Shown here piece after piece: positions 1 through 6,589 of a DNA stretch of 6,589 nucleotides; position 1 is the first letter of the stretch, and each line of letters opens with the position of its first letter. The DNA is from a virus. Taxonomy: Duplodnaviria; Heunggongvirae; Uroviricota; Caudoviricetes. A model generated the notes under the pieces. That model was not told where the DNA came from. It made no database searches and saw only the letters and a list, made by a program, of their open reading frames with translations. The stretch lies in the IMG/VR virus record IMGVR_UViG_2563366849_000001; one strand, 5' to 3'. A program made the translations under genes and the position numbers.

Positions 1-198
1 GTTTTTTACTACGAGCGCGCCGTGTGTGCGATGGCGACCGCGTCGCTTTATGAGCGTTACCGCGGCGTGGATGCCAGTGCGAAAGGCGACAAGAAGGCCG
101 ACAGCATTGACAGCACCATTGATGAACTGTGGCGGGATATGCGCTGGGCGGTGGCGCGTATCCAGGACAAGCCGCGCTGCATCGTGAGTCAAATCTGA
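1..198 (+). CDS. L: 3' end of head completion/stabilisation protein gpL (5' part lies upstream of the window)
   Basis: Frame 1 is open from the window edge to TGA at 196-198 (…DELWRDMRWAVARIQDKPRCIVSQI*). The stop overlaps the ATG of the next gene (TGATG). Position immediately upstream of X matches P2 order L-X-Y. Identity is by synteny rather than a recognised motif. Confidence 0.6.
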   Translation, partial: VFYYERAVCAMATASLYERYRGVDASAKGDKKADSIDSTIDELWRDMRWAVARIQDKPRCIVSQI

Positions 199-401
199 TG
201 AAGACCTTTGCGCTACAGGGCGACACGCTCGACGCCATTTGTGTCCGGTATTACGGGCGCACTGAGGGCGTGGTCGAGACTGTGCTCGCCGCAAATCCGG
301 GACTGGCTGAACTGGGTGCGGTGCTGCCGCACGGCACCGCCGTCGAACTGCCCGACGTTCAGACCGCGCCCGTGGCTGAAACTGTCAATCTGTGGGAGTA
401 A
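198..401 (+). CDS. X: Tail protein gpX, small LysM-like protein (67 aa)
   Basis: ATG at 198 overlaps the upstream stop; 67 aa (MKTFALQGDTLDAICVRYYGRTEGVVETVLAANPGLAELG…NLWE), the size and sequence type of P2 gpX with a LysM-like 'DTLDAIC…YYG' signature. The ORF-track start at 129 is an in-frame upstream extension that overlaps L and is unlikely to be used. Confidence 0.85.
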   Translation: MKTFALQGDTLDAICVRYYGRTEGVVETVLAANPGLAELGAVLPHGTAVELPDVQTAPVAETVNLWE

Positions 402-404
402 CGC

Positions 405-689
405 ATGACAGCAGAAGAAAAAAGCGTCCTGTCGCTTTTCGTGATTGGGGTGCTGATTGTTGTCGGCAAGGTGCTTGCCGGTGGTGAACCCATCACCCCG
501 CGTCTGTTTATCGGGCGCATGTTGCTCGGTGGTTTTGTCTCGATGGTTGCCGGTGTTGTTCTGGTGCAGTTTCCTGACCTGTCACTGCCTGCGGTGTGCG
601 GCATCGGCTCCATGCTGGGTATCGCCGGTTATCAGGTGATTGAGATTGCCATTCAGCGCCGCTTTAAGGGCAGGGGGAAGCGGAATTAA
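405..689 (+). CDS. Y: Holin gpY (class I, three predicted transmembrane segments, basic C-terminus)
   Basis: GGGAG Shine-Dalgarno at 394-398, ATG at 405. 94 aa with three hydrophobic stretches (SVLSLFVIGVLIVVGKVLAGG / LFIGRMLLGGFVSMVAGVVLV / LPAVCGIGSMLGIAGYQVI) and a charged tail QRRFKGRGKRN. Follows X as in P2. The last few codons may be altered by the adjacent deletion junction. Confidence 0.8.
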   Translation: MTAEEKSVLSLFVIGVLIVVGKVLAGGEPITPRLFIGRMLLGGFVSMVAGVVLVQFPDLSLPAVCGIGSMLGIAGYQVIEIAIQRRFKGRGKRN

Positions 690-951
690 AACGGCCAGCG
701 TGACGGCTTCTGATTCTGTTACTGCCACGGTGCCGGTGGTCATGGTGAAAGCATCAACCCGCGTCACCCTGGACACACCGGAGGTGGTCTGCACCAACAG
801 GCTGATTACCGGCACGCTGGAAGTGCAGAAGGGCGGGACGATGCGCGGCAACATTGAACACACCGGCGGTGAACTCTCATCAAACGGGAAGGTACTGCAT
901 ACCCATAAACACCCCGGCGACAGCGGCGGCACAACCGGGGGACCTCTATGA
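679..951 (+). pseudogene. V: 3' fragment of baseplate spike gene V (about the C-terminal 90 codons; N-terminal domain deleted)
   Basis: Frame open from 640 but no plausible start or RBS of its own; its 5' part overlaps the Y 3' end. Translation …VPVVMVKASTRVTLDTPEVVCTNRLITGTLEVQKGGTMRGNIEHTGGELSSNGKVLHTHKHPGDSGGTTGGPL* resembles the C-terminal beta-helix tip of P2-type gpV spikes, including the His-x-His cluster. The TGA at 949-951 overlaps the W start (ATGA), as in an intact V-W junction. The full-length gene in P2 is roughly 210 codons. Confidence 0.7.
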
Positions 952-1295
952 CAGCGCGTTATCTCGGAATGAATCGCAGTGATGGCCTGACTGTCACTGA
1001 CCTTGAGCATATCAGCCAGAGTATCGGCGATATCCTGCGCACGCCGGTCGGCTCACGGGTGATGCGTCGTGATTACGGCTCGTTGCTGGCGTCAATGATT
1101 GACCAGCCGCAGACCCCGGCGCTTGAGTTGCAGATTAAGGTCGCCTGTTACATGGCGGTGCTGAAATGGGAACCCCGCGTCACCCTGTCATCTGTCACCA
1201 CGGCGCGCAGTTTTGACGGGCGAATGACGGTCACGTTAACCGGCCAGCACAACGACACCGGCCAGCCACTTTCGTTAACCATCCCTGTGAGTTGA
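948..1295 (+). CDS. W: Baseplate assembly protein gpW (gp25/GPW family, 115 aa)
   Basis: ATG at 948 coupled to the V stop; 115 aa (MTARYLGMNRSDGLTVTDLEHISQSIGDILRTPVGSRVMRRDYGS…) typical of the GPW/gp25 baseplate wedge family and the P2 gpW size. The stop at 1293-1295 lies 4 nt before the J start. Confidence 0.9.
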   Translation: MTARYLGMNRSDGLTVTDLEHISQSIGDILRTPVGSRVMRRDYGSLLASMIDQPQTPALELQIKVACYMAVLKWEPRVTLSSVTTARSFDGRMTVTLTGQHNDTGQPLSLTIPVS

Positions 1296-1299
1296 AACT

Positions 1300-1473
1300 A
1301 TGCCGATTATCGACCTGAACCAGCTACCCGCACCGGATGTGGTCGAGGAGCTGGACTTTGAAACCATTCTTGCCGAACGCAAGGCGACACTGATTTCCCT
1401 TTATCTGGGAGCTTTACGCCGCAACCGGTGTGGATGCCGTACCGATTCGTTTTGCAGGCTCTTACCAGCGTGA
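1300..1473 (+). pseudogene. J: Truncated baseplate gene J: about 35 native N-terminal codons, then out-of-frame read-through into FII sequence ending at TGA 1471-1473
   Basis: ATG at 1300 follows W as in P2. Translation MPIIDLNQLPAPDVVEELDFETILAERKATLISLY matches the gpJ N-terminus; from about 1405 the frame continues as LGALRRNRCGCRTDSFCRLLPA*, which is FII DNA read in the wrong frame. The intact gene in P2 is about 300 codons. Confidence 0.75.
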
Positions 1474-1708
1474 CGATACCGGCGAAACGGTGGCCGTCGA
1501 GGTGGTCATGCGTGGACGTCAGAAAGAAATCGACACCGGCGAGGGTAAACAGGGAGAAGACACCGAGTCGAAAATCTCCGTGGTCTGCACTTATTTCCGG
1601 CTGACGATGGACGGTAAGGAGCTGGTCGAAATTGACACCATCAACATGATTGAGAAGGTGAACGGCGTCGACCGGCTGGAGCAACACCGCCGCAATATCG
1701 GCCTGTGA
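1403..1708 (+). pseudogene. FII: 3' fragment of tail tube gene FII (about the C-terminal 100 codons, no native start)
   Basis: In the frame ending at TAA/TGA 1706-1708 the translation is IWELYAATGVDAVPIRFAGSYQRDDTGETVAVEVVMRGRQKEIDTGEGKQGEDTESKISVVCTYFRLTMDGKELVEIDTINMIEKVNGVDRLEQHRRNIGL*, which I recognise as the C-terminal part of P2-type tail tube protein FII (about 172 aa when intact). An in-frame stop at 1391-1393 lies just upstream; the ORF-track 'start' at 1430 is a GTG inside the gene. Located immediately upstream of E as in P2. Confidence 0.75.
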
Positions 1709-1715
1709 TTTTCAT

Positions 1716-1736
1716 CCGGTCAGCCTGGCTGACCGG
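1716..1736 (+). repeat. Perfect inverted repeat (CCGGTCAGCC-T-GGCTGACCGG) in the FII-E intergenic region; potential RNA stem-loop
   Basis: Read directly from the sequence: 10-nt arms that are exact reverse complements, 8 nt after the FII stop and about 28 nt before the E start. It is not followed by a U-run, so it is unlikely to be a classical intrinsic terminator; possibly an RNA stability or processing element. Confidence 0.45.
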
Positions 1737-1764
1737 TTAACCCTGATTCATAAGTGAGAAAACC

Positions 1765-2040
1765 ATGAACAAAGAAAATGTCATTACCCTGGACAATCCG
1801 GTCAAACGTGGTGAGCAGGTTATCGAACAGGTCACGCTGATGAAACCCAGTGCCGGGACGCTGCGCGGTGTCAGTCTGGCAGCGGTCGCGAACTCCGAAG
1901 TCGATGCACTGATTAAGGTGCTGCCGCGCATGACGGCACCGATGCTGACCGAGCAGGAAGTCGCCGCGCTGGAACTGCCTGACCTTGTGGCGCTGGCCGG
2001 TAAGGTGGTCGGTTTTTTGTCGCCGAACTCGGTGCAGTAA
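1765..2040 (+). CDS. E: Tail assembly chaperone gpE (91 aa)
   Basis: ATG at 1765, 91 aa ending TAA 2038-2040; contains the T TTT TTG slippery heptamer near its 3' end. Position between FII and T and the size match P2 gpE. Confidence 0.85.
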   Translation: MNKENVITLDNPVKRGEQVIEQVTLMKPSAGTLRGVSLAAVANSEVDALIKVLPRMTAPMLTEQEVAALELPDLVALAGKVVGFLSPNSVQ

Positions 2041-2192
2041 CGTTCCCGAAAAATCTGTCGGTCGATGACCTGATGGCGGATGTGGCAGTGATATTTCACT
2101 GGCCGCCATCAGAACTGTATCCCATGAGCCTGACCGAACTCATCACATGGCGCGAAAAGGCGCTCCGGCGAAGCGGAAACACGAATGAGTAA
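1765..2192 (+). CDS. E+E': gpE+E' tail assembly chaperone made by programmed -1 ribosomal frameshift (142 aa predicted)
   Basis: Slippery heptamer T-TTT-TTG at 2013-2019 in the E frame. The -1 frame is open from there (FFVAELGAVTFPKNLSVDDLMADVAVIFHWPPSELYPMSLTELITWREKALRRSGNTNE*) to TAA at 2190-2192, which overlaps the T start at 2185. 85 E codons plus 57 E' codons gives 142 aa. Same architecture as the known P2 E/E' and lambda G/GT chaperone pairs. Confidence 0.75.
2013..2019 (+). promoter_or_regulatory. -1 programmed frameshift slippery site (T TTT TTG)
   Basis: X-XXY-YYZ heptamer in the E reading frame (GGT TTT TTG), with a 57-codon open -1 frame downstream that ends exactly at the T start region. 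Confidence 0.7.
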
Positions 2193-4632
2193 CAATGTAA
2201 AATTACAGGTATTGCTCAGGGCTGTTGACCAGGCATCCCGCCCGTTTAAATCCATCCGTACAGCGAGCAAATCGCTGTCGGGGGATATCCGGGAAACACA
2301 AAAATCACTGCGCGAGCTGAACGGTCACGCATCCCGTATTGAGGGATTCCGCAAGACCAGTGCACAGCTCGCCGTGACTGGTCATGCACTTGAAAAGGCA
2401 CGGCAGGAAGCCAAAGCCCTTGCCACACAGTTTAAAAACACCGAACGTCCGACCCGTGCTCAGGCGAAAGTGCTGGAATCAGCAAAGCGAGCGGCGGAAG
2501 ACTTACAGGCGAAATATAACCGCCTGACGGATTCCGTTAAACGCCAGCAGCGGGAACTGGCCGCTGTGGGAATTAATACCCGCAATCTTGCACATGATGA
2601 GCAGGGGCTGAAAAACCGTATCAGTGAAACCACCGCACAGCTTAACCGTCAGCGCGACGCACTGGCGCGTGTCAGTGCACAACAGGCAAAACTTAACGCA
2701 GTCAAACAGCGTTATCAGGCCGGAAAAGAACTGGCAGGAAATATGGCCTCAGTGGGCGCTGCCGGTGTGGGGATTGCTGCTGCGGGAACGATGGCCGGAG
2801 TTAAGCTGCTGATGCCCGGTTATGAGTTTGCGCAGAAAAACTCAGAATTGCAGGCTGTGCTCGGTGTGGCAAAAGACTCCGCCGAAATGGCTGCACTACG
2901 CAAGCAGGCGCGCCAGCTCGGTGACAATACCGCCGCCTCAGCGGATGATGCGGCCGGTGCGCAGATTATCATTGCGAAAGCGGGTGGAGATGTTGATGCC
3001 ATTCAGGCGGCAACGCCGGTCACGCTGAACATGGCGCTGGCGAACCGTCGCACGATGGAAGAAAACGCCGCCCTGCTGATGGGGATGAAATCTGCCTTTC
3101 AGCTTTCAAACGATAAGGTCGCTCATATCGGGGATGTTCTCTCCATGACGATGAACAAAACCGCCGCCGATTTTGACGGTATGAGCGATGCGCTGACCTA
3201 TGCCGCACCTGTGGCAAAAAATGCCGGTGTCAGCATTGAAGAAACCGCCGCAATGGTCGGGGCGCTGCATGATGCAAAAATCACCGGTTCAATGGCGGGG
3301 ACGGGAAGCCGTGCCGTGTTAAGCCGCCTGCAGGCACCGACGGGAAAAGCATGGGATGCACTCAAAGAGCTTGGAGTGAAAACCTCAGACAGCAAGGGAA
3401 ACACCCGGACAATATTTACCATTCTGAAAGAAATGCAGGCCAGTTTTGAGAAAAACCGGCTCGGTACTGCCCAGCAGGCTGAATACATGAAAACTATTTT
3501 CGGGGAGGAGGCCAGCTCAGCCGCCGCCGTGCTGATGACTGCCGCCTCAAGCGGAAAGCTGGACAAACTGACCGCTGCGTTTAAAGCCTCAGACGGGAAG
3601 ACCGCCGAGCTGGTAAATATCATGCAGGACAACCTCGGCGGCGACTTTAAGGAGTTTCAGTCCGCTTATGAGGCGGTGGGGACTGACCTGTTTGACCAGC
3701 AGGAAGGCGCACTGCGTAAGCTCACTCAGACGGCCACAAAGTATGTGTTAAAACTCGACGGCTGGATCCAGAAAAACAAATCACTGGCGTCAACCATCGG
3801 CATCATTGCCGGTGGCGCGCTGGCGCTTATTGGCATCATCGGTGCAATTGGTCTTGTAGCCTGGCCGGTTATCACCGGCATCAATGCCATCATCGCGGCA
3901 GCAGGCGCAATGGGTGCAATCTTCACGACGGTTGGTAGTGCCGTTATGACGGCCATCGGGGCGATTAGCTGGCCGGTTGTGGCCGTGGTGGCTGCAATTG
4001 TCGCCGGGGCGTTGCTTATCCGTAAATACTGGGAGCCTGTCAGCGCATTCTTTGGCGGTGTGGTGGAAGGGCTGAAAGCGGCATTTGCGCCGGTGGGGGA
4101 ACTGTTCACGCCACTTAAACCGGTGTTTGACTGGCTGGGTGAAAAGTTACAGGCCGCGTGGCAATGGTTTAAAAACCTGATTGCCCCGGTCAAAGCCACC
4201 CAGGACACCCTGAACCGTTGCCGTGACACGGGCGTCATGTTCGGGCAGGCACTGGCTGACGCGCTGATGCTGCCGCTTAATGCGTTCAACAAACTGCGCA
4301 GTGGTATTGACTGGGTACTGGAAAAACTCGGTGTCATCAACAAAGAGTCAGACACACTTGACCAGACCGCCGCAAGGACTAATGCCGCCACGTATGGCAC
4401 CGGTGGTTATATTCCGGCGACCAGCTCTTATGCAGGCTATCAGGCTTATCAGCCGGTCACGGCACCGGCTGGCCGCTCTTATGTGGACCAGAGTAAAAAC
4501 GAATATCACATCAGCCTGACCGGTGGTACTGCGCCGGGGACACAGCTCGACCGCCAGTTACAGGATGCGCTCGAAAAATACGAGCGGGATAAACGTGCGC
4601 GCGCCCGTGCCAGCATGATGCATGACGGTTAA
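2185..4632 (+). CDS. T: Tail tape measure protein gpT (815 aa)
   Basis: 815-aa ORF directly after E/E'. The N-terminal third is Ala/Gln/Arg/Lys-rich and predicted coiled-coil; the central part is alpha-helical and Ala-rich; a long Gly/Ala/Ile-rich hydrophobic segment lies at about nt 3778-4030 (IGIIAGGALALIGIIGAIGLVAWPVITGINAIIAAAGAMGAIF…); C-terminal globular part. Size and architecture are typical of a myovirus tape measure and equal P2 gpT length. Confidence 0.9.
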   Translation: MSNNVKLQVLLRAVDQASRPFKSIRTASKSLSGDIRETQKSLRELNGHASRIEGFRKTSAQLAVTGHALEKARQEAKALATQFKNTERPTRAQAKVLESAKRAAEDLQAKYNRLTDSVKRQQRELAAVGINTRNLAHDEQGLKNRISETTAQLNRQRDALARVSAQQAKLNAVKQRYQAGKELAGNMASVGAAGVGIAAAGTMAGVKLLMPGYEFAQKNSELQAVLGVAKDSAEMAALRKQARQLGDNTAASADDAAGAQIIIAKAGGDVDAIQAATPVTLNMALANRRTMEENAALLMGMKSAFQLSNDKVAHIGDVLSMTMNKTAADFDGMSDALTYAAPVAKNAGVSIEETAAMVGALHDAKITGSMAGTGSRAVLSRLQAPTGKAWDALKELGVKTSDSKGNTRTIFTILKEMQASFEKNRLGTAQQAEYMKTIFGEEASSAAAVLMTAASSGKLDKLTAAFKASDGKTAELVNIMQDNLGGDFKEFQSAYEAVGTDLFDQQEGALRKLTQTATKYVLKLDGWIQKNKSLASTIGIIAGGALALIGIIGAIGLVAWPVITGINAIIAAAGAMGAIFTTVGSAVMTAIGAISWPVVAVVAAIVAGALLIRKYWEPVSAFFGGVVEGLKAAFAPVGELFTPLKPVFDWLGEKLQAAWQWFKNLIAPVKATQDTLNRCRDTGVMFGQALADALMLPLNAFNKLRSGIDWVLEKLGVINKESDTLDQTAARTNAATYGTGGYIPATSSYAGYQAYQPVTAPAGRSYVDQSKNEYHISLTGGTAPGTQLDRQLQDALEKYERDKRARARASMMHDG

Positions 4633-4646
4633 GGAGGTGACGAAAA

Positions 4647-5126
4647 ATGATGCTCGCGTTAGGTATGTTTGTTTTTATGCGCCAGACGCTGCCACACCAG
4701 ACCATGCAGCGTGAATCAGATTATCGCTGGCCGTCAAATTCCCGTATCGGTAAACGGGACGCCTACCAGTTTCTCGGTGTGGGTGAGGAAAACATCACGC
4801 TTGCCGGTGTGCTTTATCCAGAACTGACCGGCGGCAAGCTGACGATGACCACGCTCAGGCTGATGGCCGAGGAAGGCCGGGCGTGGCCGTTGCTGGATGG
4901 CACCGGCATGATTTACGGCATGTATGTCATCAGCAGGGTGAGTGAAACAGGGAGTATTTTCTTTGCAGACGGCACACCCCGAAAAATTGATTTTACGCTG
5001 TCGCTCACCCGCGTTGATGAATCACTGGCCGCGCTTTATGGCGATATCGGTAAACAGGCGGAATCGCTCATCGGTAAGGCCGGCAGTATGGCGACCAGAT
5101 TCACGGGTATGACGGGGGCGGGATAA
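4647..5126 (+). CDS. U: Tail protein gpU (tail terminator/tail formation protein, 159 aa)
   Basis: Strong SD AGGAGGT at 4632-4638, ATG at 4647; 159 aa; the stop TAA at 5124-5126 overlaps the D start (TAATG). Position and size match P2 gpU. Confidence 0.85.
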   Translation: MMLALGMFVFMRQTLPHQTMQRESDYRWPSNSRIGKRDAYQFLGVGEENITLAGVLYPELTGGKLTMTTLRLMAEEGRAWPLLDGTGMIYGMYVISRVSETGSIFFADGTPRKIDFTLSLTRVDESLAALYGDIGKQAESLIGKAGSMATRFTGMTGAG

Positions 5127-6289
5127 TGCTGGATGCACTGACATTTGATGCAGGCAGTACGCTGACGCCGGATTACATGCTGATGCTCGACAGCAGGGAT
5201 ATTACCGGCAATATCAGCGACCGTCTGATGAGCATGACCCTGACGGATAACCGGGGCTTTGAGGCTGACCAGCTTGATATTGAACTGAACGATGCCGACG
5301 GGCAGGTCGGGCTGCCGGTTCGTGGCGCTGTCCTGACGGTGTATATCGGCTGGAAAGGTTTTGCCCTGGTATGCAAAGGGAAATTCACCGTTGATGAGGT
5401 TGAACACCGGGGCGCGCCGGATGTGGTTACCATCCGCGCCCGGAGTGCAGATTTTCGCGGGACGCTCAATTCCCGCCGTGAAGGCTCATGGCATGACACC
5501 ACGCTCGGTGCGATTGTTGAGGCGATAGCCTCCCGTAACAGGCTGGAAGCCAGTGTCGCGCCGTCACTGGCCGGAATTAAAATCCCGCACATCGACCAGT
5601 CGCAGGAGTCTGATGCGAAATTCCTGACCCGTCTTGCAGAACGCAACGGCGGTGAGGTGTCGGTAAAAATGGGAAAACTGTTGTTTCTCAAAGCGGGGCA
5701 GGGAGTGACGGCCAGCGGTAAAAAAATCCCGCAGGTCACCATAACCCGCAGCGACGGCGACCGCCATCATTTTGCGATTGCTGACCGTGGAGCCTACACC
5801 GGTGTAACGGCAAAATGGCTACACACCAAAGACCCGAAGCCTCAAAAGCAGAAGGTAAAACTGAAACGCAAAAAGAAAGAGAAACACCTGCGCGCACTGG
5901 AGCACCCGAAAGCGAAACCGGTCAGGCAGAAGAAAGCGCCTAAAGTACCGGAAGCGCGTGAAGGTGAATACATGGCCGGTGAGGCTGACAACGTTTTTGC
6001 CCTGACCACGGTATATGCCACGAAAGCGCAGGCCATGCGCGCCGCTCAGGCGAAGTGGGATAAGCTGCAACGGGGCGTTGCGGAGTTCTCCATCAGTCTG
6101 GCTACCGGTCGTGCTGATATTTACACGGAAACACCGGTTAAAGTGTCAGGCTTTAAGCGCGTCATAGACGAGCAGGACTGGACAATCACTAAGGTGACAC
6201 ATTTTCTGAATAATAGCGGCTTCACGACGTCCTTGGAGCTTGAGGTCAGGCTTTCTGATGTGGAGTACGAAACAGAAGATGATGAGTGA
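5126..6289 (+). CDS. D: Tail protein gpD (phage late control gene D family, 387 aa)
   Basis: ATG at 5126 translationally coupled to U; 387 aa, the P2 gpD size; last gene of the F-E-T-U-D tail operon, directly upstream of ogr. Contains an unusually lysine-rich segment, residues about 233-280 (KDPKPQKQKVKLKRKKKEKHLRALEHPKAKPVRQKKAPKVPEAREGE). Confidence 0.9.
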   Translation: MLDALTFDAGSTLTPDYMLMLDSRDITGNISDRLMSMTLTDNRGFEADQLDIELNDADGQVGLPVRGAVLTVYIGWKGFALVCKGKFTVDEVEHRGAPDVVTIRARSADFRGTLNSRREGSWHDTTLGAIVEAIASRNRLEASVAPSLAGIKIPHIDQSQESDAKFLTRLAERNGGEVSVKMGKLLFLKAGQGVTASGKKIPQVTITRSDGDRHHFAIADRGAYTGVTAKWLHTKDPKPQKQKVKLKRKKKEKHLRALEHPKAKPVRQKKAPKVPEAREGEYMAGEADNVFALTTVYATKAQAMRAAQAKWDKLQRGVAEFSISLATGRADIYTETPVKVSGFKRVIDEQDWTITKVTHFLNNSGFTTSLELEVRLSDVEYETEDDE

Positions 6290-6307
6290 TGCTTTTATTT
6301 TATCTGT

Positions 6308-6336
6308 TTGTTTTATAAGGATAAATTAACTAAAAT
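6308..6336 (+). promoter_or_regulatory. Candidate sigma70 promoter for ogr (TTGTTT - 17 nt - TAAAAT)
   Basis: -35-like TTGTTT at 6308-6313 and -10-like TAAAAT at 6331-6336 with a 17-nt spacer, in the AT-rich gap between the D stop (6289) and the ogr start (6371). Sequence-pattern prediction only. Confidence 0.4.
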
Positions 6337-6370
6337 GGCACTATCAACAAAACCGGAAGAGGTGCTCGCG

Positions 6371-6589
6371 ATGTTTCATTGTCCTTTATGCCAGCATGCC
6401 GCACATGCGCGTACAAGTCGCTATATCACTGACACGACAAAAGAGCGTTATCACCAGTGCCAGAACGTGAATTGCAGCGCCACGTTCATCACTTATGAGT
6501 CGGTACAGCGATACATCGTGAAGCCGGGAGAAGTCCACGCCGTAAGGCCGCACCCGTTGCCGTCAGGGCAGCAAATTATGTGGATGTAA
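6371..6589 (+). CDS. ogr: Ogr, Cys4 zinc-finger activator of P2 late promoters (72 aa, complete)
   Basis: ATG at 6371 with GAAGAGG RBS about 8 nt upstream; 72 aa MFHCPLCQHAAHARTSRYITDTTKERYHQCQNVNCSATFITYESVQRYIVKPGEVHAVRPHPLPSGQQIMWM*, matching as far as I can recall the P2 Ogr / E. coli OgrK sequence with the C-x2-C-x22-C-x4-C zinc-binding motif (Cys4, 7, 30, 35). The stop TAA is the last three bases of the window. The ORF-track start at 6308 adds a 21-aa extension that I consider spurious. Confidence 0.9.
   Translation: MFHCPLCQHAAHARTSRYITDTTKERYHQCQNVNCSATFITYESVQRYIVKPGEVHAVRPHPLPSGQQIMWM

Follow-up and report, generated by a model that had tools for sequence, protein, structure and literature searches.

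The decay of resident phages into pools of defective and "grounded" prophages is a process described in two published accounts (PMC2669165, PMC6379469). The locus considered here is compared with two intact elements, phage P2 (NC_001895) and a P2-like prophage of Escherichia coli USDA-ARS-USMARC-51408 (NZ_CP104114.1), which is complete from the terminase gene through ogr, has all lysis and tail genes annotated, and is followed after ogr by pflB, focA, and ycaO. The window (the whole 6,589-nt stretch of DNA that was analyzed) is 100% identical to positions 1-6589 of the draft scaffold KE137287.1 (GCA_000408785.1), in which the same three genes follow ogr. Gene order and orientation are as in P2, with 97.3 to 97.9% nucleotide identity and no indels inside the aligned blocks, but P2 positions 6991-10671 and 11396-19068 have no counterpart; relative to the USMARC-51408 prophage, the window lacks 3,575 and 6,796 bp. 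The best explanation, and one that we consider clearly probable, is a scar left by two deletions in a decaying P2-like prophage at pflA/pflB. The window would then cover the right-hand part of such a defective element (Peduovirus), carried by an E. coli lineage with KTE156 and the strain of GCA_000408785.1 among its members.

Retained genes and deletion junctions

Compared with P2 by blastn, the window consists of three ungapped collinear blocks with ~97.5% identity, each with E = 0, so that chance matching is of no concern. Window positions 1-679 correspond to P2 6312-6990 (97.9%; the 3' part of L, X, and Y), positions 675-1403 to P2 10667-11395 (97.5%; the 3' part of V, W, and the first 34 codons of J), and positions 1401-6589 to P2 19066-24254 (97.3%; the 3' part of FII, E/E', T, U, D, and ogr). 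Alignment with the closer USMARC-51408 prophage places the breaks at the same positions, with identities of 99.7%, 98.2%, and 99.2% for blocks 1 to 3, and there is not a single indel within the retained 6.6 kb relative to either intact relative. The collinear, high-identity late genes L-X-Y...V-W-J...FII-E-T-U-D-ogr mark the element as a P2-like (Peduovirus) prophage. Its contig has no K, R, S, 5' part of V, 3' part of J, I, H, G, FI, or 5' part of FII; with essential lysis and tail genes absent from the contig, the element is a defective prophage and not a functional phage.

All retained genes lie on the plus strand. The window opens with the last 65 codons of the head-completion gene L (positions 1 to 198; P2 6312-6509). 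This truncation is a draft scaffold boundary and not a third deletion. The same 65-aa C-terminal fragment of L is found, identical, on 39 contigs, which points to a recurrent contig-break position in P2-like L genes; the 61-aa N-terminal fragment seen at a contig break in KTE156, at P2 6159-6183, is found on 63. The tail protein gene X is intact (198 to 401; 67 aa; P2 6509-6712; Pfam family Phage_tail_X), as is W, which encodes the gp25-like baseplate wedge (948 to 1295; 115 aa; P2 10940-11287; Pfam family GPW_gp25) and whose start overlaps the stop of V. The tail chaperone genes E (1765 to 2040) and E+E' (1765 to 2192) align without gaps to P2 19430-19857 and keep the P2 -1 frameshift site, the slippery run TTTTTTG being readable in the sequence near 2013 to 2020. 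The tape measure gene T (2185 to 4632; 815 aa) and the tail genes U (4647 to 5126) and D (5126 to 6289) are intact and collinear with P2, and the late-gene activator gene ogr, also kept intact, occupies 6371 to 6589 (P2 24036-24254). The exact T protein is present in both assemblies that carry the junctions.

The holin gene Y (405 to 689; 94 aa) matches the Pfam family Phage_holin_3_2 (PF04550; E = 2.3e-42) over its full length (profile positions 1 to 86 of 86), and its product is identical to P2 gpY at 91 of 93 residues. Junction 1 lies at 675 to 679, within the last codons of Y, where P2 6990 is joined to P2 10672. In three-way base alignments with P2 and the USMARC-51408 prophage, G677 can be attributed only to the Y side, V having a T at this position, and G680 onward can be attributed only to V. 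The crossover is therefore placed in the AA at 678 and 679, a 2-bp exact microhomology inside an imperfect GGnAA repeat at 675 to 679. The frame of Y is unchanged across the joint: codon 92 is still Lys, codon 93 has changed from Gln to Arg, an Asn codon has been added, and the TAA stop (687 to 689) is supplied by the V sequence, so that the protein ends in ...GKRN* instead of the ...GKQ* of P2. A preliminary description of this DNA, made from the sequence alone, had placed the endpoint in the last codons of Y and contrasted the 94 residues of its product with 93 for P2; the alignment bears out the position and both lengths.

On the far side of the joint, positions 679 to 951 encode gpV residues 122 to 211, with 88 of 90 residues identical to the P2 baseplate spike protein (E = 6e-61), which upholds the homology to gpV proposed earlier. 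This remnant, V', contains only the Phage_spike (trimer) and Apex domains of Pfam, whereas full-length gpV also has Phage_base_V (PF04717) at residues 19 to 86. V' has no promoter, no start codon of its own, and no N-terminal OB-fold domain and is thus a gene fragment, not a spike gene. As had also been described, the stop of Y (frame 3) runs directly into the C-terminal ~90 residues of gpV (frame 1) with no start codon; the sole upstream in-frame start is the TTG at position 640, inside Y.

The gap at junction 1 amounts to 3,681 bp of P2 and to 3,575 bp of the USMARC-51408 prophage, which is 99% identical and occupies the same pflB site. According to the P2 annotation, the missing interval (P2 6991-10671) holds K, lysA, lysB, lysC, R, S, orf30, and V codons 1 to 121; it also covers the putative O-operon terminator (tO), the Ogr-binding site, and the start of the pV promoter. 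The check suggested in the preliminary description, alignment against an intact P2-like genome, yields intact reference sequence on both flanks and one gap between them, which opens in the last codons of Y and extends to V codon 121. The single deletion it proposed thus stands, but its estimate of ~3 kb was too low, the size being about 3.6 to 3.7 kb; likewise, its set of missing genes (K, lysA/lysB, R, S, and the 5' half of V) was correct and has to be extended by lysC, orf30 (or its local equivalent), tO, and pV, a promoter dependent on Ogr. At both joints of the window, reference sequence resumes immediately, with no insertion sequence (IS) element, att site, long repeat, or filler DNA. The reading of the Y|V' joint as a deletion junction is solid, and the lost genes are probably absent from the whole genome as well as from the contig.

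Junction 2, at 1401 to 1403, joins P2 11395 to P2 19069 at the microhomology TTA. The gap is 7,673 bp of P2 and 6,796 bp of the USMARC-51408 prophage; the missing P2 interval, 11396-19068, comprises the 3' part of J, I, H, G, Z/fun, the promoter pF, FI, and the 5' part of FII. What is left of the baseplate gene J is its first 34 codons (J', 1300 to 1403; P2 11292-11395), and J codon 34 runs, out of frame, into about codon 72 of FII, giving a 57-aa open reading frame (ORF) at 1300 to 1473. The tail tube gene FII is represented by its C-terminal ~100 codons (FII', 1404 to 1708; P2 19069-19373); the ORF called within it (1430 to 1708; 92 aa) begins with GTG and matches positions 76 to 165 of the 165-position Pfam profile Phage_tube.

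A 142-aa ORF on the minus strand (582 to 1010) crosses junction 1, and a 116-aa version of it has been called as a gene in both assemblies. No Pfam family is recorded for it, and most likely it is a spurious call due to the GC-rich antisense strand. A simple promoter and terminator scan of window positions 1 to 2300 detected no sigma-70-like promoter, and terminator-like matches in this region were at chance level (4 versus 2.3 +/- 1.8), so that the scan gives no hint that the joint created a new regulatory signal.

Host site and distribution of the joint

The exact 94-aa form of Y (WP_001572670.1) and the 57-aa J'::FII' ORF are each found on two contigs only in a collection of 153 billion genes. 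One is the window's own scaffold; the second carrier is scaffold KB733421.1 (GCA_000351965.1), taken to be E. coli KTE156 on the strength of its locus tags (A31A_01578 and A31A_01581) and its ELF accessions. In both carriers, T-U-D-ogr is followed by pflB, focA, and ycaO. A P2-like D-ogr block is contiguous with pflB in 402 complete E. coli genomes, the best of which is USMARC-51408, and in strain NCTC9041 the integrase end of its own P2-like element adjoins pflA; together, the ogr-pflB contiguity in the carriers and the integrase-pflA contiguity in NCTC9041 identify pflA/pflB as the attachment site of a P2-family prophage.

Scaffold KE137287.1 is continuous and free of Ns from L' across both joints to pflB-focA-ycaO. 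The two carriers differ at 10 single-nucleotide polymorphisms (SNPs) over the 9.4 kb of shared T-U-D-ogr-pflB-focA-ycaO sequence and show no difference across 1,401 bp in which both joints lie. Because the carriers are distinct by SNPs and identical at the joints, the joints belong to the DNA of two independent isolates, and we take the joint itself to be real. As a test for a repeat-mediated join in the window, the density of differences was compared between the rearranged part (0 to 1 in 1.4 to 1.9 kb) and T-U-D (7 in 3.35 kb), and the contrast is not significant.

The joint was searched for in 5,426 complete E. coli genomes, 50,697 phage records, and 72,556 plasmids and was found in none of them. 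A 241-nt probe centered on the joint matched 1,522 of these genomes, 104 phage records, and 20 plasmids, and no match in any of the three sets spans the joint; among the matches listed, the match starts at probe base 116, i.e., at window position 675. With window positions 1 to 1800 as the query, no place in the phage records or the complete E. coli genomes covered at least 80% of it. An exact 31-nt junction pattern had no match in a contig set with one genome per species, which is uninformative since that set holds species representatives alone. Absence from the Logan assemblies was discarded as evidence against the joint: the exact T protein, which is single-copy under any model, is absent there too, so the sequencing runs of these isolates are not represented in Logan.

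The KTE156 locus and alternative readings of the joint

In KTE156, the joint lies on a 3.2-kb contig (L002 9444-12641) placed between N runs of 6,695 and 4,290. Beyond junctions 1 and 2, this contig has two extra non-collinear joins: E (P2 19600) is followed by J' (P2 ~11366), with CG as the shared bases, and T' (P2 19871) by the M/L spacer (P2 5903), with AC as the shared bases. The same 25 nt stand at the start and at the end of the contig, making a 3,173-bp cycle, and FII'-E is present twice, with 2 differences between the copies. At position 1633 the single FII'-E copy of the window agrees with KTE156 copy 1 and at position 1917 with copy 2, as would a recombinant between the two or a collapsed consensus of them.

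These features would also fit a reading in which the joint is real but lies within a scrambled mosaic of ~3.2 kb, produced by serial template switching and present as a tandem duplication or array or beside an otherwise intact P2-like prophage, with the order L-X-Y | V'-W-J' | FII'-E' | J' | FII'-E-E'-T' | back to the M/L spacer. K, lysA/B, R, S, and full-length V would then remain in the genome. We regard this as unlikely, and we give still slightly less weight to its specific form, in which Y|V' would be just one of four joints in a tandemly amplified or circular template-switching product, possibly with intact genes beside it. The mosaic gains support from the four joints of the KTE156 contig, each with 2 to 3 bp of microhomology, from the shared 25 nt at its ends, and from the two FII'-E copies with the mixed alleles of the window; moreover, the window starts at the recurrent contig break in L, and an additional N gap between P and O in the KTE156 scaffold suggests unresolved repeats. 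From M to E' that scaffold measures 14,184 bp, close to the corresponding stretch of an intact prophage (14,208 bp in P2 and 13,225 bp in the USMARC-51408 prophage) and far from the ~2.9 kb left by a plain double deletion. On these grounds, intact K...V copies may coexist in the carrier genomes, the local structure may exceed two simple deletions, or the remnant may be confounded with another P2-like prophage. Against it, the window's own scaffold crosses both joints into T-U-D-ogr-pflB without a break or an N, although identically flanked intact copies, if present, should have led a de Bruijn assembler to break at Y/K and at V5'/V'. For the missing segments of 3.6 and 6.8 to 7.7 kb, the KTE156 scaffold holds only Ns and no contigs, and the E-to-J' fusion ORF is annotated in KTE156 alone, not in the strain of the window. 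Tandem 3-kb repeats, too, are unstable, yet the joints are common to strains that have diverged by ~0.1%. The sizes of the N gaps were rejected as a test of the models: their sum fits an intact prophage, yet neither gap fits any single anchor, and such sizes are too rough, the P-O gap of KTE156 also being off by about 600 bp.

That the joint could be an assembly or library chimera in a genome with an ordinary intact prophage is very unlikely. The joint is indeed known from only two scaffold-level draft assemblies, it is missing from every closed genome, phage, and plasmid searched, and the KTE156 locus is visibly misscaffolded. Graph or overlap misjoins, however, require shared sequence, and the two sides of the joint share only 2 bp; random library chimeras would not recur base for base in two SNP-distinct isolates, and circularization chimeras of jumping libraries should, given the library design, yield back-jumps and not forward jumps of the deletion type. 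There is next to no chance that Y followed by a short V-like gene is the natural order of some P2 relative or the outcome of recombination with a different phage, a view for which we found no support. Up to the joint itself, both flanks match ordinary P2-like prophages at 98 to 99.7% identity, no probe-matching phage record, complete E. coli genome, or plasmid spans it, and V' begins in the middle of a codon series, in a frame different from that of Y, with neither a start codon nor a promoter.

Probable consequences of the deletions and comparison with other P2 remnants

Under the preferred reading, two deletions in a decaying prophage, junction 1 would be the product of an illegitimate, microhomology-mediated deletion that joined the second-to-last codon of Y to V codon 122, with the shared AA making replication slippage or end-joining the likely type of event. 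Microhomology of 2 to 3 bp with no IS element, att site, or filler is the signature of illegitimate recombination (slippage or end-joining). By calculation, microhomology of at least 2 bp is expected in ~16% of random blunt joins; it is seen in 4 of the 4 joints of the two strains. Lost at junction 1 would be the gene for the endolysin (K), those for LysA and the two spanins (LysB and LysC), the tail-completion genes R and S, and cargo of the orf30 type. The terminator of the O operon, the late promoter pV, and the half of V that encodes the OB fold would have gone with them. The J'|FII' joint would record a second such deletion, to which the remaining baseplate, the fibers, the sheath, and half of the tube were lost. 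The lack of any frameshift or indel in the 6.6 kb suggests that the deletions are evolutionarily recent, and they are probably older than the split between the two host strains, which have diverged by ~0.1%.

Established P2 biology and the annotation suggest that the element can neither lyse its host nor assemble a tail, since K, LysA/B/C, R, S, the OB domain of V, J, I, H, G, FI, and full-length FII are all lost. V' is probably an untranslated relic, and V', J', and FII' are probably pseudogene fragments. The deletions together removed tO, pV, tV, and pF, i.e., both internal terminators and both internal late promoters. This loss leaves W, E, T, U, and D with no late promoter of their own, and these genes would be transcribable solely by read-through from pO; ogr would keep its own region. 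In practical terms, pseudogene fragment is the fitting annotation for V', J', and FII', and the "holin variant" of 94 aa (WP_001572670.1) is an artifact of the deletion at its C terminus and not a natural allele. The significance of the locus goes little beyond annotation, as one more precisely mapped short-microhomology deletion in prophage decay; only the multijoint mosaic of the KTE156 assembly is of some wider interest.

The 92-aa FII' ORF is also present in four independent P2-like remnants (L013, L014, L015, and L018), whose right deletion end lies in FII at P2 19053-19088. In three of them the left end is just inside the 3' end of Q (P2 264-368), so that the early genes-cos-Q'|FII'-E-T-U-D-ogr remain and ~18.8 kb are lost; this recurrent loss takes all head and lysis genes and most tail genes. 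Two of these three have a 9-bp overlap at the joint. A hot spot for deletion ends in FII (P2 19053-19088 in five remnants) was considered and rejected as an ascertainment effect. The remnants were retrieved through a single exact ORF, the 92-aa one, which arises only when the breakpoint falls between the in-frame ATG at 19032 and the GTG at 19095, so the right-hand clustering is an artifact.

Other P2-like elements in closed genomes illustrate the same kind of loss. The element of NCTC9041, at the pflA/pflB site, is a multideletion P2 remnant with the joints cox|S' and I'|FI', and that of ETEC1701, at the yegQ site, is another, with the joints A'|lysA and V'|H'|FI'. Both keep an intact FII/E-T-U-D-ogr block, and neither has the Y|V' joint. 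As P2-like prophages decay, the tail block nearest ogr seems to persist longest. The cryptic P2 remnant of E. coli K-12, ogrK with a gpD fragment, represents the end state of the same decay, in which the ogr end survives last. Decay there is far more advanced than in the window's element, which keeps 11 intact late genes. The feature described here is an ordinary deletion scar in a well-known kind of defective prophage, and nothing about it departs from that picture.
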